Positions 937 through 26,654 of a DNA stretch of 64,000 nt are shown here, in pieces. The notes beneath the pieces are model-generated. The model saw only the letters and a list, made by a program, of their open reading frames with translations, had not been told where the DNA came from and made no database searches. The stretch comes from an uncultured Actinomycetes bacterium (GTDB taxonomy: Bacteria; Actinomycetota; Thermoleophilia; Solirubrobacterales; 70-9), in the NCBI GenBank assembly GCA_963720015.1, contig CAVREA010000004.1, forward strand, positions 213,141-277,140, given 5' to 3'. How positions within the stretch are numbered: the stretch's first letter is position 1; every line of letters starts with the position of its first letter. Position numbers and translations under genes: made by a program.

Positions 937-945
937 GGAGCGGAG

Positions 946-6196: not shown

Positions 6197-6751
6197 CCCG
6201 CCGGGCAGACCTCGAGCAGGGCTTCACCCTGATCGAGCTGATCGTCGCGATGGCGATGCTGATGGCGGTTCTCTCGATCGCCGTTCCCCTGATGACCACG
6301 GCGATGCGCAGCGAGCCGGAGCTGCGGGAGAAGTCGGCGAACGTGCAGACCGCGCGCGTGGTGCTCGACCGTCTCACCCGCGAGATCAGGGAGGGCGTCT
6401 CCGTCGTCAGCTCGACCCCGACGACCCTGGCCTACCGCACCTACACCCGCAGGTCCACCTGCGGCGGGACCGCGATCCTGCCCGCCGGCGCCCCCGCGAT
6501 GCTCTGCCGCGTTACCTACCAGTGCGCGGCCGGTACCTGCACCAGGACCGAGGCGAAGGAGGACGGAACCGGTCCGGGCCCCGCGGTGCAGTTCATCACC
6601 GGCCTGCAGAGCAACAGCATCTTCTCCTACACCCCCGCGGGGGACCCGACGTTTCATCGAGGTCTCACTCGTCCTGCCGAATCCCGACGGCACCGGGAAC
6701 CTGTCGATCGAGGACGGCGCCACCCTCCGCAACGCGACCCTCTCGAACTGA
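6193..6751 (+). pseudogene. Minor (pseudo)pilin with a prepilin-type N-terminus. There is an apparent +1 frameshift near 6652, or alternatively read-through fusion to the next pilin.
   Basis: The N-terminus is MTRRADLEQGFTLIELIVAMAMLMAVLSIAV. After ...YTPAGDPTF the alternative frame reads IEVSLVLPNPDGTGNLSIEDGATLRNATLSN and stops at TGA 6749-6751, which overlaps the ATG at 6751 (TGATG). The in-frame continuation is an Arg/Pro-rich stretch typical of out-of-frame translation. Confidence 0.65.
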
Positions 6752-8187: not shown

Positions 8188-8189
8188 CC

Positions 8190-8945: not shown

Positions 8946-9033
8946 TACTGAGTAACTCGCCGGGTCCTCACGGCTACAGCAATCGTCCACGGCGGCCGAT
9001 TGATGGTTAACCGCCGAGGGGGCGGCCAATCCA

Positions 9034-10137: not shown

Positions 10138-10899
10138 TGCGTCCCGTCAACCTCATCCCACCGGATCTGCGCCGCGGCGTCCAGGCCCCCTCGCGCACCG
10201 GCCCCGTTGCCTACCTCGTCGTCGGCGGCCTCGCCCTCGTCCTCGCCGGCGTGACGCTGCTCGTGCTCTCGCAGAACCAGATCTCCGAGCGCGAGGCGGA
10301 CATCACCCGGCTCAAGCAGGAGCGGGCGGAGATCGGCTCGGGCAGAGCGCCTCGCCAGCTACACGCAGTTCAACACCGTCCGCGAACAGCGGGTCATGAC
10401 CGTGAGCAGCCTCGCCGACAGCCGCTTCGACTGGGAGCGCGTGATGGAGGAGTTCTCCCGCGTCCTGCCCTCCGACATCTGGCTCGTCAAGATGACCGGC
10501 AAGGTCCGACCGGAGGTCGACGTCGACGACAGCGCCCAGATCGCGCTGCGCGGCGGCGTCGCTGGACCCGCCCTCGAGCTGATCGGCTGCGCCCCCAGCT
10601 ACGAGTCGCTCGCCGGCTTCATCTCGTCGCTGCGCGACATCGACGGCGTCACCCGCGTCGGCGTGCTCAAGTCCGAGCGGCCGCCCCTCGCCTCCTCCTC
10701 CGACCTCGCGACCGGCGACGGCACCGACCAGGAGGACTGCCGGACCAGGGACTTCATCACCCGCTTCGAGCTCGTCGTCGCCTTCGACGCCGCGCCCGTT
10801 TCGGCGGCCACGACCCCCGGCGCCGTCCCCCCGCCCGCCCCGGCACCGGCACCGGCACCGGCCGAGCCCGCCGCAACCCCGACCTCGACCGAGGGCTGA
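10137..10899 (+). pseudogene. pilN: PilN-like fimbrial assembly protein; apparent frameshift near 10340
   Basis: MRPVNLIPPDLRR, then a TM segment (VAYLVVGGLALVLAGVTLLVL), then a coiled coil (EREADITRLKQERAEI). The frame then changes. The second frame continues AERLASYTQFNTVREQRVMTVSSLADSRFDWERVMEEFSRVLPSDIWL (ORF 10396..10899). The C-terminal tail is PAPAPAPA, encoded by a (CCGGCA)x3 repeat at 10840-10861. Confidence 0.75.
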
Positions 10900-10900
10900 G

Positions 10901-11703
10901 ATGAGCTCGAACCGGATACTCGCCTCAATGCTCGGCGTCGCAGCGATCCTCGCCGCCTTCTGGCTGCTGGCGCTGGCGCCGAAGCGCGATCAGGCCGCCA
11001 AGCTCGGCACCCAGGTCGAGAGCCTCCAGCAGGAGGTCGACCAGCTCAACGCCACCGTGGCCGCGGCCGACGAGGCGAGGCGCGACTTCGCCGACGACTA
11101 CGCGCAGCTGGTCACCCTCGGCAAGGCCGTCCCCGCCGACGACGACACCGCCTCGCTGCTGGTCCAGCTCAACAAGGTTGCGGGGCGCAACGGGCTCGAA
11201 TTCCGCGACATCGAGCTCCAGGACACCGGCGCGAGCGCGGGGGTGCCGGCGCCGACCACCGCGCCCGCCGCCCCGCCACCACCACCACCACCGACCCGGC
11301 CACCGGCGCGGTGCCCGCTGCGAGTCCAGTCCCGGCCACCGAGGCCGCCGCCGCCCTGATGCCGCTCGGCGCCACCATCGGCCCCGCTGGCCTGGCCGTG
11401 ATGCCCTACAAGCTCACCTTCGCGGGCAGCTTCTTCGATGTCTCCAAGTTCGTCGCCGGCGTCGACTCGCTGGTCAAGACCGAGACCGGGCGGGTGACGG
11501 TCGACGGGCGGCTGATGACCATCGACGGGTTCTCGCTGACCAGCGACCCGCGCACCGGCTTCCCCGCGCTGACCGCAAGCGTCTCGGTGACGACCTATGT
11601 GACCCCGCCCGGCCAGGGCGTCACGGTGGGCGCCACGCCCGCCGCCCCGGCTCCGGTCGGCGCGACCGCCACCCCGACCTCGACCACCACCCCGGCCCCA
11701 TGA
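10901..11703 (+). pseudogene. pilO: PilO-like pilus assembly protein; apparent frameshift near 11295, next to a poly-Pro (CCA/CCG) run
   Basis: The N-terminal TM segment (LGVAAILAAFWLLALAP) is followed by a coiled coil (LQQEVDQLNATVAAADEAR) and LLVQLNKVAGRNGLEF. After PPPPPPP the frame changes to DPATGAVPAASPVPATEAAAALMPLG...YKLTFAGSFFDVSKFVAGVDSLV (ORF 11311..11703). Confidence 0.7.
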
Positions 11704-12608
11704 GCAGGTTCAAGCGACCCCAGCTCAAGCGACCGGCGCTCAAGCGACCGGCGCTCAAGACGCCGCAACTGCATGCGCCGCAGGTCCTCAGCGACCTCTT
11801 CCAGGACTTGCGGGACCGGCACCTGCTGCCGCTGGTGGCAGTGCTGGCCGTGGCGATCGTCGCCGTTCCCTTCATCCTCGGCGGCTCCGACTCGGAGCCG
11901 ACGTCCGGCTCCGGCACGAGCACGGCTCCCGCGGCGGGCGCCTCGGCATCGGACGGCGCCTCCAAGCTGGTTGTGGTCGCCGCCAATCCCGGCCTGCGGG
12001 ACTACCGCCTGCGGCTGCGCGCGCTCGAGGCCAAGAACCCCTTCAGGCAGCACTTCACCGCTCCGCAGCTCTCCGGCTCCGAGCTGGGCGGCGGCGCGAC
12101 GACGACGGTGCCGACCGAGTCGACGAACGGCGGCGTGGCGTTCCCGGAGCCGTCGGTTCCCTCCTTCCCCGGCGGCACCGGCGGGAGCACCGGCGGAAAC
12201 GGCGGCGGCGGGACGGGCGGCGGCGGCCAGACCAAGGTCAAGGTCGAGACCGAGTACGTCCAGTACACAGTCGACGTGAAGGTCGTTCGCAGGGCCCAGG
12301 GCGGAAACACGCGCCAGCCTCGCGAGCGCATCCTCGAGGACGTGCCGGAGCTGACGATGCTGCCCGGCAAGAAGGCCCCGGTCGCCGTCTTCATGGGCGT
12401 CAGCGCCGACCGCGAGAAGGCCCTTCTGCTCGTCTCCGAGAACGTCACCTCGATCTTCGGCGACGTGCGCTGCATGGCCGGCTCGGAGAGCTGCCAGCTG
12501 ATCATGGTCGAGCCCGGGTTCCCGGTCACCTTCGTCTACGGGGAGAGGGACCGCGCTTACAGGCTGAACGTGCTGCGGATCGAGGAATCGGTCCGCAAGC
12601 AGCCCTGA
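11700..12608 (+). CDS. Unknown single-pass membrane protein ending the pilMNO operon, 302 aa, with a Gly-rich linker
   Basis: The ATG at 11700 overlaps the pilO stop (ATGA). The N-terminus has KRPxLK repeats, followed by a TM segment (LLPLVAVLAVAIVAVPFILGG), a GGTGGSTGGNGGGGTGGGG linker and a C-terminal beta-rich domain. I recognise no family. Confidence 0.6.
   Translation: MSRFKRPQLKRPALKRPALKTPQLHAPQVLSDLFQDLRDRHLLPLVAVLAVAIVAVPFILGGSDSEPTSGSGTSTAPAAGASASDGASKLVVVAANPGLRDYRLRLRALEAKNPFRQHFTAPQLSGSELGGGATTTVPTESTNGGVAFPEPSVPSFPGGTGGSTGGNGGGGTGGGGQTKVKVETEYVQYTVDVKVVRRAQGGNTRQPRERILEDVPELTMLPGKKAPVAVFMGVSADREKALLLVSENVTSIFGDVRCMAGSESCQLIMVEPGFPVTFVYGERDRAYRLNVLRIEESVRKQP
11709..11768 (+). 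repeat. Four tandem 15-nt units (consensus CTCAAGCGACCGGCG) encoding FKRPQ/LKRPA/LKRPA/LKTPQ
   Basis: Direct reading: ttcaagcgaccccag ctcaagcgaccggcg ctcaagcgaccggcg ctcaagacgccgcaa. The unit length is a multiple of 3, so copy-number change keeps the frame. Confidence 0.75.
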
Positions 12609-13177: not shown

Positions 13178-14962
13178 GTGCGTGACCCCGCCCTGACCGA
13201 AGCTCTGCGCAGGCTCGCCGCCGAGGCGGCGACCCGCTTCAGCTCGCTGGTCGCGAGCGGTGACGAGATCCCCTTCGACGTCGCCGAGGACGCGGGTCCG
13301 GATTCGCTCTTCTACCGCTACGTCCCGCTCACCGCCCGCTACGTCGCCGAGCGCGCCGACGAGGTCCGCTCGCTGCCGGCCTTCGAGCCCGCCCGCGACG
13401 CGGTGGCCGAGGCCGCGGTTGCCGCCCCTTATCTAGAGGCCAGGGGCCGCCCCGTGCCCGAGCACGAGGGCACGCGGGCCGAGGCGATGCTGCTGCTCTT
13501 CGTCGCCGCCCTCTGGGACGGCTCCACCGACTTCGCGCTCGACCGCCCCCGCCTCGGTCGGGCGCTCGACGCACTCGACGCCGAGACCCGAGATCTCGAG
13601 GAGACCGACATCCTGATCGTGCCGCTGGTCGGCCTGCGGATGTCGGCGCCGCGGATCAGCCTGCCGAGCGGCGTCCGAATCGTGGGCGCCGACAGCATCG
13701 AGGTCCCACTCGAAGCGATGCGCTCTGAGGGCATGAACCGGGAGCCGTGGGAGCCCCAGTTCCTGGCCGTCGCCGAGCAGGATGCCGAAGGCGAGGACCC
13801 GGTCGAGGCCCTCCGGCAGCTCCACGACCTGATCAGCGTCATGCGCCTGTTCAAGGAGGGCGCCATCGGCCTCGGGCCCCATGCCTTCGCGCCCACGGGC
13901 GAGGACAGCTGGCGCCGGATCGCAACCGGCGCTCCCCCGACCAGGCCCGGAAGCTACGAGCTGAGCGAGGCCGAGACGGCGGAGCTGGCCGAGTTCGCCG
14001 GCGACCTGGAGGCGTGTCCCGACCCCCGCGGCTCGCTGGCCTGGGCGATCGCCCGCTTCGAGATGGGCTGCGAGCGGGCCAGCGCGATCGAGGGCCTCTC
14101 CGATCACCTCCTCGCCCTGCAGGCCGTCCTCGAAGGCGAGGGGCCGGTCGGGGCGTCGCTGCCGATGCGGGCAGCGGCGCTGATCGCGGAGCCCGAGGAG
14201 CGCCCCCAGACCTCGCTTCGGTTCGAGCGCATCCAGCATCTCGAGCGCGCGCTGATCGCCGGCGCGCCCGTGGGGCCCGCCGGCCTCGATGCCGGGGCGG
14301 CAGCCGAGCACGCCGCTTGGCTCGAGGAGGGCCTGCGCGCAATCCTTCGCAACGCGGCCCTCGGCGAGCACGGCGCCGACCTCGGCGCCGCGGCGGACGA
14401 GACCCTGATCGCGGCGGGTCTGATCGCCGGCGAGGTGAGCGAGGAGCAGATGGGGTCCGCCGCCGAATGGGACGTCATCTCCGAGGCCGAGGGGAACGCA
14501 GATCGCGAGGAGGAGATCCGGGTGACGGACGAGCGAGACGAATTGCTCGAGCGCGAGGCCCGCGCCGGCAGCGGCGAGGAGATCAGGGTGACGGCCAAGC
14601 CCGCCGCCGAGCAGGAGTTCGACCGGGCGGTCGGCGCCTCGGCCCAGGAGGGGCTCGAAGCCGGGCCGCCGGAGGTCGACGAGGACTTGAGCGGGAAAGC
14701 GCACGACGACGGCAGTCGGGCCGATCCCGGCGACGACTACCAGGAGGGCACGATGATCGACCGTGACTGGCTCGGCGAGGTCGAGCGCGCCGACAGCGCC
14801 ACACTCGAATGGCCCGCGACCGCGATCGGCGAGCCGGCTCCCGGCGAGCGCGAGCGGATCGACACCCCGCGCGTCCGGCACCTGTTCCCGGTCCCCGAGG
14901 ATGCGGACTGGGAGGTTCGCGAACTCGACTACGACCGGCGCAGGACGGCCAACGGCCGCTGA
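13178..14962 (+). CDS. Hypothetical acidic protein, 594 aa; no recognisable domain
   Basis: A GTG start has GGGAG 2-6 nt upstream. It is a single intact 1.8-kb ORF. The C-terminal third is very acidic and carries a duplicated EEIRVT motif. Confidence 0.65.
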   Translation: MRDPALTEALRRLAAEAATRFSSLVASGDEIPFDVAEDAGPDSLFYRYVPLTARYVAERADEVRSLPAFEPARDAVAEAAVAAPYLEARGRPVPEHEGTRAEAMLLLFVAALWDGSTDFALDRPRLGRALDALDAETRDLEETDILIVPLVGLRMSAPRISLPSGVRIVGADSIEVPLEAMRSEGMNREPWEPQFLAVAEQDAEGEDPVEALRQLHDLISVMRLFKEGAIGLGPHAFAPTGEDSWRRIATGAPPTRPGSYELSEAETAELAEFAGDLEACPDPRGSLAWAIARFEMGCERASAIEGLSDHLLALQAVLEGEGPVGASLPMRAAALIAEPEERPQTSLRFERIQHLERALIAGAPVGPAGLDAGAAAEHAAWLEEGLRAILRNAALGEHGADLGAAADETLIAAGLIAGEVSEEQMGSAAEWDVISEAEGNADREEEIRVTDERDELLEREARAGSGEEIRVTAKPAAEQEFDRAVGASAQEGLEAGPPEVDEDLSGKAHDDGSRADPGDDYQEGTMIDRDWLGEVERADSATLEWPATAIGEPAPGERERIDTPRVRHLFPVPEDADWEVRELDYDRRRTANGR

Positions 14963-14978: not shown

Positions 14979-16127
14979 TCAGGCTCCGGCGGCGATCTCC
15001 TCCCGCTCCGGCTCGGTGGCGAACAGGTAGCGGTTGATCTGGGCTAGGCCGCCGAGGTCGTGGACGTCCTCGTCCAGGTAGGGGACTCGAATCACGGTCG
15101 CGGCCCCCAGCTCGGCCGAGAGCCGCTCTATGTTGCGGGCGTCGCGCTCCGCGAGGGCGCCGTAGTCGGCGAAGTTGGCCGCGACCCGCTCGGCCAGCTC
15201 GGCGTCCTCGAGCGCCGCGGTCAGCTCCTCCCGCAGGTCGCCACCGTCCCCGGGCAGCCGGTCGAACGCGTAGTGGACCTTGTTGACGATCACCCCGCCG
15301 AAGGGGAGGTCGGCCTCGATCAACTTGCGGTGGAAGTAGACGGCCTCCTCGATCGGCTCGCCCTGCGGGCCGCAGACGACGAGGAAGCAGGTGCCGGGGT
15401 CGGCGAGGAGGGCGTTGACCCGCCTCGCCCGCTCCTGAAAACCGTCCACCATGCCGCTCATCGCGGTGAAGAACTCCGAGAGGTCCGCGAGCAGGTCGAA
15501 TCCGACGATCCGCTTCAGGACCGAGAGGACGACCGAGGCCCCGCGGCCGGCGACCCGCGCCGCCATCCCGGTCGGCTTCATGAACACGCGCAGCGAGCGG
15601 CCCTCGATGAACTGCATCAGGCGGCGCGGGGCGTCGAGGAAGTCGAGCGCGTTGCGGGTCGGCGGAGTGTCGAGGACGAGCAGGTCGAAGCGCCCCCCGG
15701 AATGGATCTCGAACAGCTTCTCCATCGCCATGTACTCCTGCGATCCCGCCAGCGCATTCGAGATCTGCTGGTAGATGCGGTTGCCGAGGATGCGGTCGCG
15801 GCTCTGCGCGTCCTCGGCGTAGCGGCTGACGACCTCGTCGAAGGTCGCCTTCGGATCGAGCATCATCGCCCACAGCTCGCCGCTCATCCGAATGCCCGTC
15901 GCCTCGAACAGGGCCGGATCGACACGGCGGGCCTCGTTGCCGAGCTGCTCGAGGCCGAGGGCGTCGGCGAGCCGCTTCGCCGGGTCGATGGTGACCACGC
16001 AGACCTTCAGCCCCTTCGCCGCCATACCGGTGGCGACCGCCGCGGCGGTCGTCGTCTTGCCGACTCCGCCCGATCCGGCGCAGACGCAGACGCCCTTGCC
16101 GGCGAGGACCTCGTCGATCGCGGTCAC
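14979..16127 (-). CDS. ArsA/Get3-family ATPase, 382 aa (BagB/Rv3680-like)
   Basis: It has a deviant Walker A (CAGSGGVGKTTTAAAVA) and TIDPAKRLADALGL. It is the second gene of a same-strand pair. Confidence 0.85.
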   Translation of the reverse strand: MTAIDEVLAGKGVCVCAGSGGVGKTTTAAAVATGMAAKGLKVCVVTIDPAKRLADALGLEQLGNEARRVDPALFEATGIRMSGELWAMMLDPKATFDEVVSRYAEDAQSRDRILGNRIYQQISNALAGSQEYMAMEKLFEIHSGGRFDLLVLDTPPTRNALDFLDAPRRLMQFIEGRSLRVFMKPTGMAARVAGRGASVVLSVLKRIVGFDLLADLSEFFTAMSGMVDGFQERARRVNALLADPGTCFLVVCGPQGEPIEEAVYFHRKLIEADLPFGGVIVNKVHYAFDRLPGDGGDLREELTAALEDAELAERVAANFADYGALAERDARNIERLSAELGAATVIRVPYLDEDVHDLGGLAQINRYLFATEPEREEIAAGA

Positions 16128-16146: not shown

Positions 16147-17073
16147 TCAAAGCCTGGCTCCGAGGGCGCGCGCGGACTCGAGGCCGAGCTCGGGCTCGAA
16201 GAGGAACGGAAGCGTCTTGACCGGCGCCTCGACGCGGCGTCGCAGGCGCGCCAGCTGGGCCCGCTGGGAGCGGGCCCGGTCGTGCTCGGAGATCGCCGCC
16301 CGCGCAGCGGCCCGGACCGCGCCGTTCTCGCGCCCGGCCACGCCGGCGAGCCGCTCGGCCTCCTCGTTGGAGAAGCGCTGCGGGTAGAGCGCGTTCATGT
16401 AGATGCGATCGACCGCGACGCCGACCTCGGCCCGCAGGTCGCGCTCGAGGCTTGCCGACTCGTTGACCGGCATCTCCTCGGGCAGCGAGACGATCGCCGC
16501 CCCGGTCAGGGCCTCGTCGGTGATGAAAGCGTCGAGCTGCCGGGCCTGCGAGTGGATCGGCCCGACCCTGGCGATCCCGGCGAAGGTCCGCGGCGTCTGC
16601 AGAAAGCCGATCCCGTGGCCCGTGGCCGGCGCGTCGACGACGACCAGGTCGTACTTGCGTCCGCGCTTGACCTTGCGGTCGAGCTGGGCCAGCTCCCAGA
16701 TCTTGCCGATCGTGACCAGCTCCTTGAGCCCGGGGGTGGCGGCGGCCAGGTAGGTGAAGATGCGGCTTCGGAATAGCAGGTCCCGCATCGCCCGCACCTT
16801 GAGCTGGAGCAGCACGTACTCGCGCATCGAGTCGTCGGGATCGATCGAGATCGCCCAGAGGTTCTCCGCCATCCGGGTCTCCTCGAAGCCGACCGCCGCG
16901 TGGCCGAAGAAACGCGACGCCCGCTCCTGCGCGGCCACCTCGCAGACGATCGTCCGCCGCCCCTCCGAGGCGGCCCGCAGCCCCATCGCGACCGCCACAG
17001 TCGTCTTGCCGACGCCCCCCTTTCCTGTGACGAAGACCAGCCGCTTGTCGAACAGGTCGGTAACCCGGCTCAT
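16147..17073 (-). CDS. ArsA/Get3-family ATPase, 308 aa (BagA/Rv3679-like)
   Basis: The P-loop is VFVTGKGGVGKTTVAVAMG. It lies 19 nt upstream of the second ArsA-like gene. The sizes and order match the Mtb Rv3679-Rv3680 pair as I remember it. Confidence 0.85.
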   Translation of the reverse strand: MSRVTDLFDKRLVFVTGKGGVGKTTVAVAMGLRAASEGRRTIVCEVAAQERASRFFGHAAVGFEETRMAENLWAISIDPDDSMREYVLLQLKVRAMRDLLFRSRIFTYLAAATPGLKELVTIGKIWELAQLDRKVKRGRKYDLVVVDAPATGHGIGFLQTPRTFAGIARVGPIHSQARQLDAFITDEALTGAAIVSLPEEMPVNESASLERDLRAEVGVAVDRIYMNALYPQRFSNEEAERLAGVAGRENGAVRAAARAAISEHDRARSQRAQLARLRRRVEAPVKTLPFLFEPELGLESARALGARL

Positions 17074-17172: not shown

Positions 17173-18339
17173 ATGGGATTCCTCAGCCGCAAGACCACCA
17201 CAGCAGAGCCATCCACGAACGGCGCGCCGCCCGCGGTCGCCGAGGAGCTCGAGCGCGTCGAGCAGGAGGCGATGGACGAGTCGCCCGAGATTCGCGCCGA
17301 GCCCGACCCGGGGAAGGACGACGGCGGGACCGCCGAGCCTCGAGACCTCGAGAAGGAGCTGGCCGAGGCCGAAGCCGGCGGAGAGCCCGAGGGCGCCGGG
17401 AGCGAACCCTCCAGCAACCCGGCCGCCCCCGGACGCGAAGCGGAGGAGGCGGCCGGCACCGACTCCGAGTCCGAGTCCGAGGGGCGAATGATGCCCCGGG
17501 ACCTGATCGCCCCAGACCGGCGGAAGATGGCCGCCGAGGCGGCCGAGGCCGAGAAGGCGGTCGCCGAGGCTCCCGTCAAGCACGCCGAGGTGATCGCCTT
17601 CGCCAACCAGAAGGGCGGAGTCGCCAAGACGACGACGACCCTCAACCTGGCTGTCGCCTTCGCCGAGAGCGGCCACCGCGTCCTCTGCATCGACCTGGAT
17701 CCGCAGGGCAACCTGACGATGAGCCAGGGGATCGACCCGGACAAGGTGGAAAAGAGCCTCTACGACGTGCTCGTGCACGACATGCCGATCTCCGAGATCA
17801 TCGCCAAGCGCGAGATCGACATCGCCGTGGCCTCGATCGACCTGGCCGGCGCCGAGATCGCGATGAGCACGAAGATCGGCCGCGAGCGCTCGCTGGAGAA
17901 GGCGCTGAAGGAGGTCTCCGGCGATTACGACTTCATCTGCATCGACACGCCGCCCAGCCTCGGGCTGCTCACGATCAACGCGCTGACGGCGGCGACCAAG
18001 GTGATCGTCCCCGTCCAGTGCGAGTATCTGTCGATGCGTGGCCTGGTCCAGCTCCAGAACACGCTCAAGATGATCCAGGAGAACCTCAACCCCGACGTCA
18101 AGATCGAGGGCATCCTGCCCACGATGCTCGACTCGCGGACCGTTCACGCCAAGGAGGCGGTCGAGATCCTCGAGGAGAACTTCGGCGACCTCGTCTTCAA
18201 GTCGCGGATCCGCAAGGCGATCAAGTTCGCCGAGGCCCCGGTGAGAGGTGCTTCCGTGCTCAAGTACGATTCGCAGAGCAACGCCGCCAACTACTACCGG
18301 GAGCTGGCCAAGGAGGTTCTCAGCAATGGCTCGTCGTAA
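17173..18339 (+). CDS. Orphan ParA/MinD-superfamily ATPase, 388 aa, with a ~130-aa acidic disordered N-terminal extension
   Basis: The core is VIAFANQKGGVAKTTTTLNLAVAFAESGHRVLCIDLDPQGNLT (deviant Walker A KGGxxKT). No parB follows. The last 14 nt overlap the ftsZ start. Confidence 0.85.
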   Translation: MGFLSRKTTTAEPSTNGAPPAVAEELERVEQEAMDESPEIRAEPDPGKDDGGTAEPRDLEKELAEAEAGGEPEGAGSEPSSNPAAPGREAEEAAGTDSESESEGRMMPRDLIAPDRRKMAAEAAEAEKAVAEAPVKHAEVIAFANQKGGVAKTTTTLNLAVAFAESGHRVLCIDLDPQGNLTMSQGIDPDKVEKSLYDVLVHDMPISEIIAKREIDIAVASIDLAGAEIAMSTKIGRERSLEKALKEVSGDYDFICIDTPPSLGLLTINALTAATKVIVPVQCEYLSMRGLVQLQNTLKMIQENLNPDVKIEGILPTMLDSRTVHAKEAVEILEENFGDLVFKSRIRKAIKFAEAPVRGASVLKYDSQSNAANYYRELAKEVLSNGSS

Positions 18340-19882
18340 GCGCGCGAGCATGAGGGAGGGGCCGCTCGCCGACCTCTTCCGCTCCACCGTCGACGATCCG
18401 CCCGCGGATCCCCCCGAGGCTCCGCAGGAGCTGTCCCGCGAAGCGTCCCCGAAGCCCGCTCCGGACGCAGACGCGCCGCGCTACGGACGCGAGGACCCGG
18501 TGGGGGAGACCCCTGCTCCCGATCCTGGGCCTGCTCCCGGCCCCGGGCCCGACCCCGGTCCTCCGCCCGCACCTTCGGACCCCGTCCCGCCGACCCAGCC
18601 GGATCCGGCGCCCGAGCCGCAGATCCGCGAGGCGCCCGACGACGAGGACCCCCTTGCCCCGCCGACCCGCGGCGCCGACGTCTCAAGCCTGCCCAAGCCG
18701 AAGGAGCGCCTCAGCCGGATCTTCGGCGACGACGCCTCCCGCGGCCGGGAGCCGGCCGGACGGGACTACGTGGAGACCCCCCGCTACGGCCGCGACGAGC
18801 CCGAGTACGAGCCCCGCGGCGGCAGCCCGCACACGCCGCGGATCCGCGTCGTCGGCGTCGGCGGCGCCGGCGTCAACGCGATAAACCGCATGGTCGAGGC
18901 CCAGATCCCCGGGGTCGAGTTCATGGCCGTGAACACGGACCTGCAGTCGCTGCAGCTGTGCATCGCCGACGTCACCATCCACATCGGCGGCGAGCAGACC
19001 CGCGGCCTCGGCGCCGGAGCGGACCCCGACCTCGGCTTCAAGAGCGCCTTCGAGGAGCAGGACAAGATCAAGCGCCTGCTCAAGGGGTCCGACATGGTCT
19101 TCGTCGCCGCCGGCGCCGGCGGCGGGACGGGAACGGGCGCCGCTCCGGTCGTGGCCCGGCTGGCCCGCGAGGTCGGAGCCCTTACCGTCGGCATCATCTC
19201 GAAGCCGTTCAGCTTCGAGGGCAGCCGCCGGGGCACGCAGGCGGCCAAGGGCATAGAGGCCCTCGCCGCCGAGGTGGACACCCTGATCGTGGTGCCCAAC
19301 GACCGCCTGCTCGACGTCCTCGACCAGCAGACCTCGATGGTGGAGGCCTTCCAGGTTGCCGACGACGTCCTGCGCCAGGGGGTGCAGGGCATCTCGGACC
19401 TCGTCACCCTGCCGGCAGTGATCAACCTCGACTTCGCCGACGTGCGGACGATCATGTCCGAGGCCGGCCAGGCGCTGCTCGGGATCGGCATGGGAACCGG
19501 CGAGGAGCGAGCGCTGGCCGCCGCCGAGAAGGCGATCTCCTCACCGCTGCTGGAGACTTCGATGGACGGAGCCCGCTCGATCCTGCTCTCGATCACCGGC
19601 GGCGCCGACCTCTCGCTGGTGGAGGTGTCGGAGGCGGCCAAGGTTGTCGGCGAGGCCGCGCACCCGGACGCCAACATCATCTTCGGCGCCAACATCGACG
19701 ACGACCTCACCGACCAGGTCTGGGTGACCGTGGTCGCGACCCGCTTCGACGGCCGCGCCCGGCCGCAGCGGCGCACCGAGGAGCCGACCATCCACCGCAC
19801 GAGGGAGAGCGGCCGGCCGCGCCGTTCGGAGCGGCCGGGAGACCTCGGCTCGCTCGACGTACCCGAGTTCCTGCCCAACTGA
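18326..19882 (+). CDS. ftsZ: Cell division GTPase FtsZ with a ~170-aa Pro-rich N-terminal extension
   Basis: The ATG at 18326 is preceded by AAGGAGG (18310-18316). The core motifs are RVVGVGGAGVNAINRM, GGGTGTGAAPVVA (tubulin signature), NLDFADV (T7 loop) and the C-terminal peptide LDVPEFLPN. The extension contains two copies of PRYGR[ED][DE]P. There is no in-frame ATG closer to the core than the Met at residue 9. Confidence 0.85.
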   Translation: MARRKRASMREGPLADLFRSTVDDPPADPPEAPQELSREASPKPAPDADAPRYGREDPVGETPAPDPGPAPGPGPDPGPPPAPSDPVPPTQPDPAPEPQIREAPDDEDPLAPPTRGADVSSLPKPKERLSRIFGDDASRGREPAGRDYVETPRYGRDEPEYEPRGGSPHTPRIRVVGVGGAGVNAINRMVEAQIPGVEFMAVNTDLQSLQLCIADVTIHIGGEQTRGLGAGADPDLGFKSAFEEQDKIKRLLKGSDMVFVAAGAGGGTGTGAAPVVARLAREVGALTVGIISKPFSFEGSRRGTQAAKGIEALAAEVDTLIVVPNDRLLDVLDQQTSMVEAFQVADDVLRQGVQGISDLVTLPAVINLDFADVRTIMSEAGQALLGIGMGTGEERALAAAEKAISSPLLETSMDGARSILLSITGGADLSLVEVSEAAKVVGEAAHPDANIIFGANIDDDLTDQVWVTVVATRFDGRARPQRRTEEPTIHRTRESGRPRRSERPGDLGSLDVPEFLPN

Positions 19883-19917: not shown

Positions 19918-21466
19918 GTGAACGGGGTGGTGGCCGCCGGCCATCCGCTGACGGCCGAGGCCGGTTCCTGGGCCCTCCGCGAAGGTGGCAACGCGGTCGA
20001 CGCGGCGGTCTGCGCAGCGCTGACATCGTTCGCGCTCGAAACTCCGCTCACCGGCCTCGGCGCCGGCGGCTACATGCTGGTCCACGACCCGGCCGGGGAG
20101 GACGTGCTGGTCGACTTCTTCGTCGAGGCTCCCGGGCTGGGCGGGATCGAGCGCGGCGCCGAGCTGGTCCCGATCGACGTCTACTTCGATCCCTCCACCG
20201 TCCAGGTCTTCCACGTCGGGGCGGCGTCCTGCGGGGTTCCCGGCACCGCCGCCGGTCTCGCCCACGCGCTCGAGCGCTTCGGGACGATGCCGCTGGAGGC
20301 GCTGGTCGCGTCCCGGCGTCCGCCACGCGCGCGAAGGAGCCCATCTCAACCGTCAGCAGGCCTTCCTGCTCGAGATCCTCGAGCCGATCTACACCCGCAC
20401 CGAGGAGCTGCGCGAGATCTACGCGCCAGCCGGCCGGATCCTGCGCGAGGGCGAGATCTTCCGCTTCCCCGATCTCGCCGACGCCCTCGAGCGCCTCGCG
20501 GCGGACGGCCCGCAGCCCTTCTACTCGGGCGAGATCGGCCAGGCGATCGCCGATTTCGTCCTCGCCCGCGGCGGCACGCTCTCGCGCGCCGACCTCGAGG
20601 CCTACGCGGCGGTGGAGCGGGAGCCCGTGCGGGCCGCGTTCGCCGGGTGCGAAGTCCTCACCAACCCGCCGCCCTCATCGGGCGGGATCCTGATCGCCTT
20701 CGCGCTCGACCTGCTCGAGCGGCTCGGCCGCGGCGACGTGGAGGCGGTGGTCACGGTGATGCGGGCGGCGAACGAGGAGCGCGGCGAGAGCTTCACCGAC
20801 GGCCTGCGCGAGCCCGGCTTCCTCGGGCGCTTCCTCGACCCCGCCAGACTCGACGGCATCGCCGAGGGGCTGCGCCGCGGCCCCTCGCCGCCCGGCCGCG
20901 ACCTGCCCGGCGACGCGCTCGGCTCGACGACCCACCTGGTCGCGATCGACGCCGACGGTGTCTGCGCGAGCGTTACCTGCTCGAACGGGACCGGGTCCGG
21001 GGTGCTGGTGCCGGGGACGGGGGTCCACGTCAACAACATGCTCGGCGAGGAAGACCTCAACCCGCACGGGTTCCACCGGACGCCCCCCGGCACCCGGCTG
21101 CCGTCGATGATGTCCCCGACGGTGGTCCTGCGCGACGGCGAGGTGGTCGCAGGCCTCGGCAGCGCCGGCTCCAACCGGATCCGCTCCGCGGTCCTGCAGA
21201 CGGTGTTGAGGATGCTGCTCGACGGGTTCGGGCCCGCGGCGGCGATCGAGGCGCCGCGTGTCCACTTCGAAGCAGGGACCGTGCAGGCCGAGCCGGGCGT
21301 GGACCAGACGGGGCTGCGGCGGATCGAGGAGTCCGGCACGGCCGTCGTCCGCTGGGATCACAAGAACCTCTTCTTCGGAGGCGTCCAGGCCGTCAAGCGG
21401 GAGCCGGACGGGGCCCTGGGCGGGGCCGGGGACTCGCGCCGGGGAGGCGCGGCCGCGGTCGCCTAG
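19918..21466 (+). pseudogene. ggt: Gamma-glutamyltranspeptidase; one apparent 1-nt insertion near 20311
   Basis: The N-terminal part reads VVAAGHPLTAEAG...LGAGGYMLVH...FGTMPLEALVA. After the frame change it reads GVRHAREGAHLNRQQAFLLEIL...PPPSSGGILIAF...GSTTHLVAIDADG (the catalytic Thr in the TTH motif)...NNMLGEEDLNP. Confidence 0.8.
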
Positions 21467-21469: not shown

Positions 21470-22087
21470 TCAGGGGCCGATGTGCACCCTGCCGTTCGAT
21501 TTCGCCCGCTCGGCCAGGTCACCGGCCTTGTCGAGCGCCTCCTGGAGCGTTGTCAGCACCCGCGCCAGCATCGCCATCCGCTCGGCCTCGCCGCGCATCT
21601 GCAGCAGCTCCTGCTTGGTCTCCGCCGGCAGCTCGACCCGGGCGGCCAGACCGTAGGCGGTCGCCTCCGCCAGCTCGTCGTCGGTGGGCCGTTCGCCCGC
21701 AGCCATCTCGGCGAGGTCGGCGAAAGCGCTGCGGGCCGCCGCCGCATCGGGAGCCTCGGCCGCCGGCTCCTCCTCTTCGACCAGCTCGACCTCGGCCGCC
21801 GGCTCCTCCGGGTCGTCGAAGCGGTCGAGCACCCGGAATGGGATGCCGCCGCTGACGACGACGTTGAGGCGGCCGTCCTCGAAGCGCTCGAGGACCTCGG
21901 TGACGTGGGCCGTGCAGCCCATCGAGCGGGCGCCCTCGGCGTCGCGGAGCACGATCCCGAAGGGCTCCCCCGCCTCCAGGCAGCGGCCGATCATCCGCTT
22001 GTAGCGCTCCTCGAATATGTGCAGCGGAATCACCTCTCCGGGGAGCAGCACCAGCGGCAGCTCGAATATCGGCAGCGATTGCGGCAC
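21470..22087 (-). CDS. Lon protease N-terminal (LON substrate-binding) domain protein
   Basis: LPIFELPLVLLPGEVIPLHIFEERYKRMI...GEPFGIVL is the LON-N signature. The maximal ORF runs to 22171 but would then overlap the divergent cyclase start. The GTG at 22087 is my preferred, uncertain start. Confidence 0.7.
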   Translation of the reverse strand: MPQSLPIFELPLVLLPGEVIPLHIFEERYKRMIGRCLEAGEPFGIVLRDAEGARSMGCTAHVTEVLERFEDGRLNVVVSGGIPFRVLDRFDDPEEPAAEVELVEEEEPAAEAPDAAAARSAFADLAEMAAGERPTDDELAEATAYGLAARVELPAETKQELLQMRGEAERMAMLARVLTTLQEALDKAGDLAERAKSNGRVHIGP

Positions 22088-22163
22088 TTCCTCCAGTCTA
22101 GGAATCCCCGGGGACCGGGCCGTCGCGACGCTCCGCTGCCGGGCAGTAGAGAATGAGCCCGGG

Positions 22164-23300
22164 ATGAGCAAGGACGGGATCGATTTCGAGGCGGAGGGGC
22201 TGCTCGGCGACCTCGAGGGGGAGCAGCGCCAGGCCCGCCTCGCCCTGCTCGAGGACCTCGCCGAGGACGGCGCCGAGCTCGAGGAGCTGCGCGAGGCTAC
22301 GGCCGCCGGCCGTCTGGCGCTGCTGCCGGTGGAGAGGGCGCTTGCGGGCGACGGGCCGCGCTACACGCCGGAGGAGGTGGCGGAGAAGGCCGGCGTCGAT
22401 CTCGAGATCCTGCAGCGGTACATCGCCGCTCTCGGCCTGCCGGTTCCCGAGCCTGGCGAGCCGGTCCTCACCGACCACGACGTCGACTCCGCGAAGCGCG
22501 TCAAGGCCTTCGAGGAGATCGGGCTGCCCGAGGAGGGCACGCTTCAGGTCGCCCGCACGATCGGGATGGCGACGGCCCGGATCGCGCAGGCCAACCGCGA
22601 GCTGATCCGCGACGCGCTCGTCCACGAGGACGACAACGAGCACGATCTCGCGCTGCGGTTCGCCGCGGCGGCCAGGGTGATGATGCCGCTGGTGGCCCCG
22701 ACCCTGGCCTACTCGATGCAGATGCACCTGATCGAGCAGATCCGGCGGGACGTGATCGGCGCCGCCGAGATCGCCTCGGGCGAGGTCGGCAGCGCCACCG
22801 ACGTCGCGATCTGCTTCGTCGACATGGTCGACTTCACCAAGCTCGGGGAGCGGGTAGACGTCGAGGAGCTGGGCCACGTCGCCGGTCGGCTCGAGGAGGT
22901 GGCGACCTCGGTCGCGAAGTCGCCGGTGCGCGTCGTCAAGCTGATCGGCGACGCCGCGATGCTGGTCTCGGCCGAGGTCGCGCCGCTCTTCGACGCCGCG
23001 CTCCAGATCATCGAGGCCGCGGACGCCGAGGGTGAGCAGTTCCCCCAGCTTCGCGGCGGAATCGCCTTCGGTACGACTCTCGGGCAGGGCGGCGACTACT
23101 ACGGCAGGCCGGTCAACCTGGCCAGCCGGATCACCGGCGTGGCCAGGCCGAGCAGCCTCCTCGCCACCGCCGAGGCGGTCGAGGCGGCTGGTGACGCCTT
23201 CCACTACTCGTTCGCCGGGGTGCGCTCGCTGAAGGGGATCGACGGCAGGGTGCGGTTGTTCCGGGTCCGCCGCGAGCCCCGGAAGGGCTCGAACGGCTAG
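22164..23300 (+). CDS. Class III adenylate/guanylate cyclase with an N-terminal regulatory region
   Basis: The catalytic-domain motifs are VAICFVDMVDFTKLGERV, VKLIGDAAMLV and RGGIAFGTTLGQGGDYYGRPVNLASRI. The start is the ATG at 22164. Confidence 0.8.
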   Translation: MSKDGIDFEAEGLLGDLEGEQRQARLALLEDLAEDGAELEELREATAAGRLALLPVERALAGDGPRYTPEEVAEKAGVDLEILQRYIAALGLPVPEPGEPVLTDHDVDSAKRVKAFEEIGLPEEGTLQVARTIGMATARIAQANRELIRDALVHEDDNEHDLALRFAAAARVMMPLVAPTLAYSMQMHLIEQIRRDVIGAAEIASGEVGSATDVAICFVDMVDFTKLGERVDVEELGHVAGRLEEVATSVAKSPVRVVKLIGDAAMLVSAEVAPLFDAALQIIEAADAEGEQFPQLRGGIAFGTTLGQGGDYYGRPVNLASRITGVARPSSLLATAEAVEAAGDAFHYSFAGVRSLKGIDGRVRLFRVRREPRKGSNG

Positions 23301-25187: not shown

Positions 25188-26637
25188 TGACAGGACCCGC
25201 CGGGCAGGGCACCGATCCCTCGGCCGTCAACGGACACGACACGGTCGGAGACCTGGCGATCGTGCTGCACAGCCACATGCCCTACGTCGAGGGCTTCGGC
25301 ACCTACCCCTTCGGCGAGGAGTGGCTCTTCGACGCGGTGATCCGCTCCTACCTGCCGGTGCTCGATGTCGCCCGCGACGTGACGATGACGATCACGCCGG
25401 TGCTGGCCGACCAGCTCGAGGACCCTGGGACCGCGGAGCGGCTGCGGGAATTCCTGCTGACCTACCGGATCGCCAGCGCCGAGGCCGACGTCGAGGAGGT
25501 CGAGGCCGCGTGCCGGCCCGCGGCTGCGGCGGAGGCCGCCCGCCACCGGCGCGCGCTCGAGCTGCTCGACGCCGCCGGCGATCCGCTGACGCCGTTCCGG
25601 GCCGCGGCGGAGGAGGGGAGGGTCGCGCTGATGGCGTCGGCCGCCACCCACGCCGTCCTGCCGATGCTCGCGACCCGCCCCGGAATGGCCCTGCAGCTCG
25701 ACGCGGGCATCCGCTCGCACCGCCGCCGCTTCGGCTGGGACGGGGGCTTCTGGCTGCCGGAGTGCGCCTACGCCCCGGCGATCGACGATGAGCTCGCCCG
25801 CCACGGTGTGCGCTGGTTCTGCATCGATCAGAGCGCCGCCGAGCCGGGGGTGGCCGCCCCGGCGCCGATCCGCTCGCCGGGAGGCCCGGTTGCGTTTGCC
25901 CTCGACTGGGAGGCGATCGGTTGGCTCTGGTCGCTGGACGGCTACCCGTCCGACCCCGCCCATGCGCAGTTCGCCGGCAAGTCGTGGCGGGGCACGAGGA
26001 TCTGGCGGGTCGGCGGCGGCGCCTACGACCCGGCGGCGGCCGAGGGGGCCGCGCGCCGGCAGGCGCGCGAATTCCTCGAGGCGGTCGCAGCGCGGCTCGG
26101 CGAGCGGGCCCGCCAGGCCGGAAAGCGCGGGCTGCTCGTCTTCGCAATCGACACCGAGCTTCTCGGCCACTGGTGGCTGGAAGGGCCCGTCTGGTTCCGG
26201 CAGGTGCTCGAGGGGGCGGCCGGCGCCGGGATCAGCCTGACCACGCTGCCCGCCGCGCTCGCCATCCACGAGGCCGAGGACCGCCCGTTGCGCGCCTCGA
26301 CCTGGGGCGAGGGCAAGGACCTGCGGACCTGGGACTCGCCGCCGGTCGCCGACCTCGCCTGGGCGCGCGCGCAGGCTGGAGCTGCGCCTGCTGCGCGCCC
26401 TGGGCCGCGGCCTCGACGGGCCCGCGGCGGAGCGCGCCGCGCGCGAGCTGCTGGCCGCCCAGGCGAGCGACTGGGCATTCCTCGACAGCCGCGGTCAGGC
26501 CGGCGACTATCCGTTCCGGCGGGCCAGCGGTCACGCCGAGGCGATGCTCGAGGCCATAGACTCCGGGCCTGCACCGGACCCGCGGATGCGGGCCCTGGCA
26601 CCCAGACCTCAGCCTCGCGCCGCTCCTCGAGCCCTAG
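25187..26637 (+). pseudogene. GH57-family glycoside hydrolase (branching-enzyme-like, Rv3031-like); frame changes near 26365 and probably near 26602
   Basis: The N-terminus is LAIVLHSHMPYVEGFGTYPFGEEWLFDAVIRSYLPVL (GH57). The frame switches inside a GCGCGCGCGC run (26363-26372) to RLELRLLRALGRG...ASDWAFLDSRGQAGDYPF. The natural-looking end DLSLAPLLEP-TAG (26635-26637) is in a third frame. Read literally, the second frame instead runs into the GT4 gene. The start could be 25124 or 25187. Confidence 0.7.
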
Positions 26638-26654
26638 CCACTCCGTCAGCCATC

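Follow-up and report, generated by a model that had tools for sequence, protein, structure and literature searches.

How the division site is chosen in the Actinomycetota is a long-standing question, because Min and Noc are lacking in this phylum. The stretch of DNA analysed here, 64 kb in length and hereafter termed the window, bears on that question in that a gene for a ParA-like ATPase runs into an ftsZ whose product carries a long N-terminal extension; might the two proteins together place the division ring? To our knowledge, the known ParA-family regulators of the Z-ring, i.e. MinD, MipZ and PomZ, all act via separate proteins. The overlapping pair suggests that two genes make up a hitherto undescribed system for placement of the division ring, no description of such a ParA-FtsZ system having been found in the searchable literature. 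A first-pass annotation of the window had pointed to the coupled ParA and FtsZ genes as candidates for a division-site module not yet described; the conserved adjacency of the genes and the upstream ftsZ start, both described below, support this proposal, the positioning role being one that we infer.

The upstream gene (17173..18339, + strand) encodes a protein of 388 aa, which its Pfam matches and solved relatives place with the Soj/ParA-type deviant-Walker-A ATPases. Residues 139-385 match AAA_31 (205 bits, cut-off 27) and CbiA (95 bits), and no NCBIfam equivalog scores at or above its cut-off. The best solved relatives are from Mycobacterium smegmatis (4pfs/5if9, 214 bits) and Myxococcus xanthus (ParA, 8ray, 204 bits), with the Soj proteins of Helicobacter pylori and Thermus thermophilus also among the best. 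[quoted passage not shown] R322, a residue without variation in the orthologue alignment, is presumably the equivalent of R189 of Bacillus subtilis Soj, based on a by-eye alignment to the Soj sequence.

[quoted passage not shown] The residues aligned with these in the ParA-like protein, i.e. I229, L263, G264, L265, I268, M300 and L305, are identical or conservatively substituted, and the DNA-binding R238 of M. xanthus ParA (numbering of PMC12462528) aligns with K351. Judged by sequence, the protein is a ParA/MinD deviant Walker A ATPase of the Soj/ParA type, in which the catalytic motifs, the basic DNA-binding residues and the ParB-peptide pocket all appear to be retained. An identity as MinD was considered and rejected, the match to TIGR01968 being 53.5 bits versus a cut-off of 212.9 and the window being devoid of min genes; the amphipathic membrane-targeting tail of the MinD type is likewise absent from the C terminus, which ends ...YRELAKEVLSNGSS.

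The ATPase core is preceded by an extension that the first-pass annotation had described as about 130 acidic residues. The length and the overall acidity hold, but by no means every residue is acidic: aa 1-138 contain 35 D/E versus 15 K/R, giving a net charge of -20. The extension opens with the peptide MGFLSRK (17173..17193, +), in which G2, F3, L4, S5, R6 and K7 are each at least 90% conserved among the 85 orthologues, and continues as an acidic, mostly disordered region (17194..17586, +) with conserved islands, including a helix at aa 22-34 and, in the conservation profile, RMxxRDLIAPxR (aa 105-117; nt 17485-17523, +). AF2 assigns pLDDT values below 50 to most of it, with helices predicted at 22-34, 59-67 and 116-132. 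Both the MGFLSRK peptide and the acidic extension are absent from a Gaiellaceae-like lineage that has the same gene pair; the extension is specific to Solirubrobacterales and thus lies outside the core of the module.

The downstream gene (18326..19882, +) encodes a 518-aa FtsZ. As the first-pass annotation had it, core and C terminus are canonical: the protein scores 411 bits against the NCBIfam ftsZ equivalog TIGR00065 (cut-off 295), the GTPase core (aa 173-474; 18842..19747, +) comprises the Pfam domains Tubulin (aa 173-332) and FtsZ_C (aa 381-474), with the GGGTGTG motif at nt 19118, and the C-terminal peptide LDVPEFL (aa 510-516; 19853..19873, +) is at least 90% conserved at V512, P513, E514, F515 and L516. 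The ftsZ ATG lies at 18326 and the TAA stop of the parA-like gene at 18337-18339, so that the genes overlap by 14 nt, in agreement with the ORF coordinates given earlier, and the Shine-Dalgarno sequence AAGGAGG noted before is indeed present (18310..18316, +), 9 nt before the ATG and within the C-terminal ParA codons A-K-E-V-L. The public record of the contig contains the same 518-aa FtsZ (P0121). Across 80 related loci, the codons for K5-R6-A7-S8, which lie upstream of an alternative Met9, vary at third positions only, which argues that translation of FtsZ begins at 18326; a downstream start, named at the outset as an outcome that would undo the proposal, is thus disfavoured at the codon level.

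The comparison of the arrangement covered some 80 genomes of Solirubrobacterales, some 76 metagenome contigs of the Gaiellaceae-like lineage and three loci looked up via the FtsZ N-terminal peptide, and overlap, Shine-Dalgarno sequence and gene order are repeated in essentially every informative one. In Solirubrobacterales, the parA stop and ftsZ ATG overlap in 80/80 loci with both ends readable (by 14 nt in 62, by 17 nt in 15, and by 29, 8 and 4 nt once each), with AAGGAGG 8-10 nt before the ATG in nearly all 80. The overlap is 29 nt in 63 Gaiellaceae-like loci; seven more were scored by script as 8 nt, an upstream ATG/GTG start having been overlooked, as inspection revealed, and AAGGAGG was also found in the inspected loci of this lineage. 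All three peptide-first look-ups have the parA gene directly upstream of ftsZ. The same arrangement in about 160 independent loci is far beyond chance, and the adjacency, loss of which would have told against the proposal, is kept in all informative loci of both lineages. The parA-like and ftsZ genes thus evidently form a conserved two-gene module, in all probability with coupled translation, within the class Thermoleophilia.

Pfam searches of the 40 ORFs of the window reveal no parB, min or dcw genes, bearing out the earlier remark that dcw genes do not flank this ftsZ, and ftsQ, ftsA and sepF are likewise absent from the flanks of the related loci; residence in the dcw cluster is the rule for ftsZ but no defining trait. 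A scan for the ParB motif GERRxRA in the window and the related loci gave no true match, a lone off-frame chance match in one locus (L057) being dismissed, ParB was absent from the Pfam matches there as well, and no minE or pomXY-like genes occur near the pair. Its neighbours encode BagA/BagB-like ATPases, a protein of unknown function, GGT and adenylate cyclase. The description of the ATPase as an orphan without parB holds for the 64-kb window and for the 3-10 kb on either side of the pair in relatives, rather than at the scale of whole genomes. On this gene-content evidence, the context of chromosomal ParABS systems, in which parB is adjacent and the origin close by, appears to be lacking in the window and in the related loci.

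The FtsZ extension, earlier described as some 170 Pro-rich residues with a duplicated PRYGR[ED][DE]P motif, is 172 aa long and has copies of that motif at aa 51 (PRYGREDP) and aa 152 (PRYGRDEP). It appears to be more than generic disorder, consisting of a near-invariant peptide, a variable linker and two short motifs. The peptide, which the first-pass annotation had overlooked, comprises aa 1-21 (18326..18388, +) and reads MARRKRASMREGPLADLFRST; six of its 21 residues are K/R, for a net charge of +4. Among 120 homologues, M9, R10, E11, G12, P13, L14, L17, F18, S20 and T21 are invariant and M1, R3, R4, K5, R6, A7 and S8 are at least 90% conserved, and the peptide is also present in the Gaiellaceae-like lineage. 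AF2 models, which are of low confidence (mean pLDDT 61), place a 5-residue helix at aa 13-17, within the helix-prone L-A-D-L-F stretch, in an otherwise disordered peptide. An exhaustive profile (HMM) search of 1.84 billion representatives returned the peptide in 1025 protein clusters (50% identity); it is restricted to FtsZ, being the FtsZ N terminus in 150/150 of the best 150 of the 1025 clusters, and was found in no other type of protein among these.

The linker (aa 22-124; 18389..18697, +) is Pro-rich and acidic (34 Pro in 103 aa, net charge -15), is predicted to be disordered, and contains the first, semi-conserved PRYGREDP copy (aa 51-58; nt 18476-18499, +). Its length varies, such that the distance from Met1 to GGGTGxG ranges over 181-296 aa across loci; its alignment columns are little conserved, and AF2 gives it no secondary structure and low confidence (10-residue block means 48-69). 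Next come an amphipathic motif, (P)ERL[KS]R[VI]F (aa 125-133; 18698..18724, +), with R128, L129 and F133 invariant or nearly so, which AF2 models as a helix at 125-133 and which has the maximum hydrophobic moment in the extension (0.80), and, just before the core, the motif E-T-P-R-Y-G-R-[ED]-E-P-x-Y-E-P (aa 150-163; 18773..18814, +), in which R153, G155, R156, P159 and Y161 are invariant in the 120 homologues.

What defines the partners of ParA/MinD ATPases is an N-terminal stretch that is short, disordered and positively charged; the partners are either attached to the cargo or themselves a component of it (PMC7993993, PMC10241942). In both sequence and gene context, the FtsZ N terminus seems to qualify as one of this class, which includes ParB, MinE, ParG, PomX, McdB and TlpT, and the peptide is thus a candidate ParA-partner peptide of the ATPase-activating type. 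In published work, the genes around a ParA/MinD ATPase are taken as pointers to its cargo (PMC10241942), a rule with which the parA-like/ftsZ neighbourhood agrees. The strict register of the M. xanthus ParB motif, L-x-[RK]-x-L-x-x-L-[IL] (L11, R13, L15, L18, I19; PMC12462528), is not reproduced in the FtsZ peptide, which reads M9-R10-E-G-P-L14-A-D-L17-F18: only L14, L17 and F18 fall in register, forming the L-x-x-L-[FI] half, the hydrophobic residue at the start of the motif and the basic one at its centre being shifted. A profile of the peptide retrieved nothing at E<=10 from the PDB, ParB N termini included.

We consider the chances evenly balanced that the pair is a coupled module in which a ParA-type ATPase bound to the nucleoid has FtsZ itself as partner, or client, and as cargo, with no adaptor in between. 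The ATP-bound ParA-like dimer would bind the nucleoid via non-specific DNA binding, as do Soj/ParA proteins; the invariant basic/hydrophobic peptide, carried on a flexible linker of 60-190 residues, would be displayed in many copies on each FtsZ filament, which would thereby act as a multivalent cargo, and a ParA gradient would set the place of the filament relative to the nucleoid. Most likely, FtsZ would collect at the middle of the nucleoid or of the cell, in the manner of the PomXYZ, McdAB or plasmid ParABS systems; alternatively, it might be held off the DNA, as in nucleoid occlusion or with MipZ. A separate adaptor such as ParB, MinE or PomX/Y would be unnecessary. The more specific proposal, that FtsZ serves as its own adaptor, its peptide docking directly on an ATPase produced from the same overlapping message and activating it, and that the Z-ring positions itself by a ParA gradient in the absence of Min, Noc, MipZ/ParB and PomXY, is more tentative and falls a little short of an even chance. 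Physical contact of the peptide with the ATPase, stimulation of ATPase activity, nucleoid binding and the sign of the effect on the Z-ring are what we infer here. The ERL[KS]R[VI]F and ETPRYGR motifs of the extension have no role in this client model.

It is possible, although on balance unlikely, that the genes are merely co-expressed, the ATPase serving ParB-parS, or a different cargo whose gene lies elsewhere, in the manner of other second ParAs of actinobacteria such as PldP/Rv1708, and its location upstream of ftsZ tying its dosage or timing to division, while the FtsZ peptide contacts some other component of the divisome, the membrane or an anchor in it, or tunes polymerization, as does the N-terminal peptide of Anabaena FtsZ. 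The departure from the ParB register and the lack of profile similarity to ParB N termini would fit such an arrangement, as would the finding that a cyanobacterial FtsZ N-terminal peptide affects polymerization (PMC6175996), and the amphipathic ERLKRVF helix offers a possible membrane or protein contact. Against this, peptide and upstream ATPase occur together in every locus examined, in two lineages and in the peptide-first look-ups; the position of the peptide at the exact N terminus of a long flexible tether is the architecture of partner proteins (PMC7993993, PMC10241942); and other segments of the extension surpass the peptide in amphipathicity, its E11 and D16 being atypical of a membrane-targeting helix.

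It is improbable that the ATPase is instead an inhibitor akin to MipZ or nucleoid occlusion factors, whose nucleoid-bound dimer would antagonize FtsZ polymerization via the core, so that rings form where the ATPase is scarce, the FtsZ peptide only raising the local concentration or being irrelevant. The retained DNA-binding residues are compatible with such a role, for which MipZ is a ParA-family precedent in acting directly on FtsZ (PMC9897490). The Pfam MipZ profile does match the parA-like ORF above its cut-off (49.6 bits versus 20.7), but the match is partial (profile positions 2-137 of 262) and far below that to AAA_31, and the nearest solved relatives are Soj/ParA, not MipZ; inhibition via the core would also leave unexplained a tethered, invariant FtsZ peptide in just this clade. 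That the FtsZ extension is an untranslated annotation artefact, with the true start near the core and an accidental overlap, is scarcely credible even though certain gene callers choose Met9 as the start, or a site much further downstream (373 aa in locus L001), given that GC3 stays at 0.82-0.97 throughout from each proposed start, in both extensions, that protein-level conservation extends over the invariant N-terminal peptide and two other motifs, the DNA differing only at third positions, that the frame from ATG to core is open in about 150 loci despite changing linker length, and that interruptions of the frame are confined to indel-prone long-read MAGs.

If FtsZ is indeed the client of the ATPase, the pair would constitute a minimal two-protein system for positioning the division site, the simplest of its kind yet, and the first case of a cytoskeletal polymer as direct cargo of a ParA ATPase; it would imply that the logic of an N-terminal peptide plus a ParA/MinD ATPase can be grafted onto a cytoskeletal protein. 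The module is abundant in soil and conserved across the Thermoleophilia, a class of soil actinobacteria, and the hypothesis is directly testable with just the two proteins and the one peptide, together with DNA and ATP.

Comparison with known systems reveals partial likenesses. With canonical ParA/ParB systems, the module shares an ATPase core that is about as similar to M. xanthus ParA (8ray, 204 bits) as to any solved protein, the DNA-binding residues and ParB-peptide pocket (PMC12462528), and, in the FtsZ peptide, the basic cluster and L-x-x-L-[FIL] character of ParB N termini; it differs in having no parB/parS context, in a peptide that is off-register and not detectably homologous, and in that FtsZ takes the place of a DNA-bound clamp as the proposed client. 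MipZ of Caulobacter and other Alphaproteobacteria is likewise a DNA-binding ParA-family ATPase that regulates FtsZ placement directly, but it is ParB-dependent and inhibits FtsZ via the core, no coupling exists between its gene and ftsZ, and the FtsZ of these bacteria lacks an N-terminal partner peptide. In the PomXYZ system of M. xanthus, the nucleoid-bound ParA/MinD-family ATPase PomZ positions the Z-ring, and its activator works via a short conserved positive N-terminal peptide with a Pro/Ala-rich disordered region (PMC7993993). In the present case there are no neighbours resembling pomX and pomY, the genes for coiled-coil / HEAT activators that accompany pomZ, the peptide is on FtsZ itself, the genes are translationally coupled, the host belongs to the Actinomycetota and the ATPase is nearest to Soj/ParA and mycobacterial 4pfs-type proteins.

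The second ParAs of actinobacteria (PldP/Rv1708/SCO1772 and the 4pfs-type Rv3213c/MSMEG_1927) are likewise parB orphans of this phylum, and PldP/Rv1708 has been implicated in septum placement (PMC4255298, PMC10482377). Among solved structures, one of the 4pfs type matches the ParA-like ATPase best, and both have the unusual Walker A KGGVAKTT; the likeness is one of structure match and context, and neither PMC4255298 nor PMC10482377 mentions an ftsZ adjacency of these proteins or an N-terminal FtsZ peptide. In heterocyst-forming cyanobacteria, FtsZ has a clade-specific conserved N-terminal extension (PMC6175996), a likeness by description, and there the peptide acts on polymerization without a linked ParA gene. 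In the TlpT/PpfA system of chemoreceptor clusters and the McdB/McdA system of carboxysomes, the partner with a charged tail is part of, or bound to, the cargo and the ATPase gene adjoins the cargo genes (PMC7993993; PMC10241942), whereas in the Thermoleophilia module the cargo would be the cytokinetic polymer itself.

The parA-like gene (17173..18339, + strand, as for all features of the pair) encodes a 388-residue protein, aa 139-385 of which constitute a ParA/Soj-type deviant-Walker-A ATPase (Pfam AAA_31, 205 bits; CbiA, 95 bits). It is followed by ftsZ (ATG at 18326, end at 19882; 518 aa), the product of which scores 411 bits against NCBIfam TIGR00065 (cut-off 295). As the first-pass annotation had described, the two genes overlap: the ftsZ ATG lies 14 nt ahead of the end of the ParA-like stop codon (TAA, 18337-18339), and a Shine-Dalgarno sequence, AAGGAGG, is located at 18310-18316, i.e. 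with a 9-nt spacing to the ATG. The codons for the ParA-like C-terminal A-K-E-V-L (GCC AAG GAG GTT CTC, in the region 18310-18339) also serve as this Shine-Dalgarno, and the stretch is thus under two constraints at once; FtsZ codons 1-4 are overlapped by the weakly conserved ParA-like tail (SNGSS). The codons for FtsZ K5, R6, A7 and S8 lie past the ParA-like stop and ahead of an alternative Met9, and in 80 loci they vary at third positions only, revealing that they are translated and that ftsZ starts at 18326; a start further downstream is not supported. GC3, counted from the proposed starts, is 0.82-0.97 across both frames, and an FtsZ of the same extent (518 aa; P0121 in our numbering of homologous proteins) is called in the contig's public record. 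Scans for promoter and terminator consensus sequences near the pair, which are uninformative for this phylum, gave no match.

Homologues of both proteins come from Thermoleophilia, with source names including Solirubrobacterales, Conexibacteraceae and Gaiellaceae. A scan of the ParA-like protein against one genome per GTDB species gave at least 549 relatives; the loci of the best 80 are all from Solirubrobacterales/Thermoleophilia MAGs, and in every readable one ftsZ is directly downstream of the ParA-like gene, the few exceptions being contig ends or long-read assemblies with indel damage. Most loci (62) have a 14-nt overlap of the ParA-like stop with the ftsZ ATG; it is 17 nt in a further 15, and one locus each has 29, 8 and 4 nt. 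AAGGAGG ahead of the ATG is encoded by the conserved A-K-E-V-L. A metagenome scan seeded with a Gaiellaceae orthologue provided 80 further loci of a second, Gaiellaceae-like lineage. The ParA-like gene could be located in 76 of these, and 75 have the same arrangement (with a 29-nt overlap in 63), the remaining locus having <60 nt of contig after the ParA-like gene. Apparent Met9 starts with an 8-nt overlap in seven second-lineage loci were rejected, because MARKRATM or a GTG start lies upstream. Three look-ups that took the FtsZ peptide, instead of ParA, as their starting point again placed the ATPase directly upstream. The adjacency surveyed at the suggestion of the first-pass annotation is thus conserved in both lineages, and we are highly confident that the pair is a functional unit. 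The wider order in Solirubrobacterales is HxlR, an unknown protein, BagB/BagA (opposite strand), ParA-like, FtsZ, GGT, cyclase and methyltransferase, of which the Gaiellaceae locus keeps only ParA-like, FtsZ and GGT; given that chromosomal synteny is stable across ~80 genomes, a mobile-element origin was rejected.

In Pfam scans of 40 ORFs over the 64 kb, the upstream side carries genes for type IV pili, HxlR, a conserved protein of unknown function and two BagA/BagB-like ATPases of the Get3/ArsA type, and genes for gamma-glutamyltranspeptidase, a Lon-substrate-binding-domain protein, adenylate cyclase and fatty-acid/CoA metabolism lie downstream of ftsZ. Consistent with the initial reading that the ATPase has no parB partner and ftsZ no flanking dcw genes, neither Pfam on these ORFs nor a ParB motif scan revealed a parB, min or dcw gene in the 64-kb window; a ParB-like GERRxRA match in one related locus (L057) was rejected as an off-frame chance ORF across the GGT and cyclase genes. 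The two Get3/ArsA-fold ATPases (14979-16127 and 16147-17073, both - strand) are divergent from the parA-like gene and most like mycobacterial BagB/BagA, below NCBIfam cut-offs. They are kept in 77-79 of 83 Solirubrobacterales loci, are absent from the Gaiellaceae locus, and form with the ParA-like protein three adjoining SIMIBI-class P-loop ATPases. Upstream of them, in 69 of the 83 loci, is a conserved 594-residue protein (13178-14962, +), which has an acidic C-terminal half and no Pfam or NCBIfam match. The type IV pilus cluster (358-12000, +), likewise upstream in related locus L001, encodes PilM, T2SSF/PilC, a fragment of T2SSE and a protein of 991 residues that matches no Pfam family, together with two prepilin-type N-methylation proteins, one of which lies inside a 664-residue ORF. 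The gamma-glutamyltranspeptidase gene is split (19918-21466, +): the frame of its N-terminal part runs from 19918 to ~20300 and then gives way to Arg-rich text that is out of frame, and its C-terminal part is at 20612-21466; T2SSE (358-936), MeaB (28784-29503) and GT4 (26544-27314) also look truncated, and ftsZ itself is split within the C/G-rich Pro linker in related MAG loci L048, L073, L084 and L085. These split and truncated window genes fit indel errors of long-read MAG assembly rather than pseudogenes. The Lon-substrate-binding-domain ORF (21470-22171, -) overlaps the adenylate cyclase ORF (22017-23300, +) head to head by ~155 nt; a later start of the cyclase, near MSKDGIDFEAEGLL at ~22164, is probable, as in related loci.

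The FtsZ core is complete and, in agreement with the first-pass annotation, canonical (Pfam Tubulin, aa 173-332; FtsZ_C, aa 381-474; LDVPEFL, aa 510-516). Both proteins do carry long N-terminal extensions, of 138 residues in the ParA-like protein and 172 in FtsZ. An alignment of 120 homologues reveals that the latter is modular and not evenly disordered. It opens with a peptide (aa 1-21), M-[AS]-R-R-(x)-K-R-A-S-M-R-E-G-P-L-[AS]-[DE]-L-F-R-S-T, in which M9, R10, E11, G12, P13, L14, L17, F18, S20 and T21 are invariant, M1, R3, R4, K5, R6, A7 and S8 are >=90% conserved, and 6 of the 21 residues are Lys or Arg. The linker that follows (aa 22-124) is acidic and Pro-rich (34 Pro in 103 residues), with next to no column conservation; its length is variable, such that the distance from Met1 to GGGTGxG ranges from 181 to 296 residues among loci. 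The extension ends with a conserved short amphipathic helix, (P)ERL[KS]R[VI]F (aa 125-133; nt 18698-18724), which has its highest hydrophobic moment, and, directly ahead of the core, the motif E-T-P-R-Y-G-R-E-E-P-x-Y-E-P; the duplicated PRYGR[ED][DE]P reported initially is present at aa 51 and aa 152. Confidence is low (pLDDT 61) in the AlphaFold2 monomer models of the two proteins, which are informative for disorder and short helices only; in these the FtsZ extension is disordered save for short helices at aa 13-17 and aa 125-133. The second of these helices resembles the short MinD-type membrane-targeting helix (…FLKRLF…). It could contact a membrane or another protein independently of the N-terminal peptide, and it has no role in the mechanism proposed below. 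A Tat signal was rejected on reading the N-terminal sequence, as the RR is not followed by a hydrophobic h-region.

In the second lineage the peptide is M-A-R-[KR]-R-A-[ST]-M-R-E-G-P-L-A-E-L-F-[RK]-A-T and the linker is unrelated; the same peptide is also found on a third linker type (…STEESV…VTAT…HEGLERLMGG…AFGRDEP). An exhaustive search with a peptide profile over 1.84 billion cluster representatives gave 1025 matches at E<=1e-3, with 107 at E<=1e-10. The peptide is at the FtsZ N-terminus in all of the best 150 of the 1025 matches, a few being frameshifted calls in which it sits after a read-through ParA C-terminus, and was found on no other protein type among those 150. Homologue searches with 54-residue FtsZ N-termini matched mostly short fragments, which are ftsZ genes split by indels in long-read MAGs, and stand-alone peptide genes were thus rejected; apparent peptide losses in L054, L094, L119 and L120 proved to be indel damage or R10H/E11D variants.

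The ParA-like core is >90% identical across 85 orthologues. Its best solved relative is the M. smegmatis protein 4pfs/5if9 (214 bits), with which it has an unusual KGGVAKTT Walker A in common, further ones being M. xanthus ParA 8ray (204 bits), H. pylori Soj and T. thermophilus Soj. R322, which is invariant in the 85 orthologues, we take from our own alignment to be the counterpart of B. subtilis Soj R189. The alignment to 8ray, mapped to native M. xanthus numbering (chain position + 19, calibrated on the chain's visible D60A), places I229, L263, G264, L265, I268, M300 and L305 at the positions of the ParB-peptide pocket residues V116, L150, G151, L152, L155, L187 and L192 (PMC12462528), and K351 at that of the DNA-binding R238. 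Retention of these residues gives the protein the traits to be expected of a ParA that binds DNA and is stimulated by a partner; a C-terminal amphipathic helix is absent, and no NCBIfam model (MinD, MipZ or other) is matched at equivalog level. Its extension is acidic (35 Asp/Glu, 15 Lys/Arg, net charge -20), and in Solirubrobacterales begins with a conserved basic/hydrophobic MGFLSRK.K (17173-17193, aa 1-7), after which come a conserved helix and a disordered acidic linker; the MGFLSRK-type peptide might be autoregulatory or bind a landmark protein. The Gaiellaceae-like protein is a plain ~255-residue ParA, with neither MGFLSRK, helix nor acidic linker, implying that the acidic extension is a later addition outside the module core. 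In one Gaiellaceae MAG (GCA_036555865.1; locus L002, 8001-9125; P0026) the ParA-like gene has an internal tandem duplication of ~118 residues (NLNPDTIERSMYDVLVH … SMIRENLNPD, repeated); 80 related metagenome loci match it over only ~768 nt, so the duplication is private to that MAG and probably an assembly artefact.

The partners of ParA/MinD ATPases, including ParB, MinE, ParG, PomX, McdB and TlpT, contact and activate the ATPase dimer through a short stretch at the N-terminus that is disordered and carries positive charge; they are components of the cargo or are bound to it, and are usually encoded next to the ATPase gene (PMC7993993; PMC10241942). The FtsZ peptide has every descriptive feature of such a partner: it is basic, forms the very N-terminus of the protein, is held on a flexible tether, and is encoded by a gene overlapping that of the ATPase. 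We thus propose that FtsZ is both partner and cargo of the ATPase. ATP-bound ParA-like dimers would coat the nucleoid; FtsZ peptides would dock in the dimer pocket and set off hydrolysis; and the ATPase gradient so formed would determine where the multivalent FtsZ filaments are placed with respect to the nucleoid, with translational coupling setting the stoichiometry of the two proteins. We prefer a recruiting, PomZ-like effect over an excluding, MipZ- or Noc-like one. The conserved coupling and the invariant partner-type peptide support and sharpen the original proposal of the pair as a candidate division-site module, and we give the peptide an even chance of being the partner peptide of the ATPase.

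A less probable explanation is that the ATPase works mainly with another partner and that the FtsZ peptide binds something else, candidates being a membrane anchor or a control of polymerization, the latter as for the Anabaena FtsZ N-peptide (PMC6175996). The M. xanthus ParB motif is L11-x-R13-x-L15-x-x-L18-I19 (PMC12462528), and its strict register is absent from the FtsZ peptide, of which only L14, L17 and F18 align; this counts against a partner role. Moreover, the peptide profile, when compared with all PDB sequences in a check for ParB N-termini, gave no match at E<=10, so its resemblance to ParB is one of kind rather than detectable homology. It is unlikely that the ATPase acts on the FtsZ core as an inhibitor of the MipZ type. 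That the extension and overlap are annotation artefacts is essentially excluded by the GC3 values and by the restriction of K5-S8 codon variation to third positions.

With FtsZ as the proposed partner of the ATPase, the module can be compared with known systems; no description of it was found in the full text of open-access papers and bioRxiv. A partner-type peptide on FtsZ itself is present in none of PomXYZ, ParABS, MipZ, TlpT/PpfA, McdB/McdA or the second ParAs of actinobacteria. The activator peptide is on PomX in PomXYZ and on ParB in ParABS, whereas the candidate here is on FtsZ. MipZ acts directly on FtsZ, yet is ParB-dependent, and in TlpT/PpfA and McdB/McdA the peptide is on the cargo, but the cargo is not FtsZ. 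The actinobacterial second ParAs (PldP/Rv1708; Rv3213c-type) are implicated in septum placement, with no ftsZ link in PMC4255298 and PMC10482377. We class the module as a putative ParA/MinD positioning system in which the client is unprecedented and there is no adaptor.
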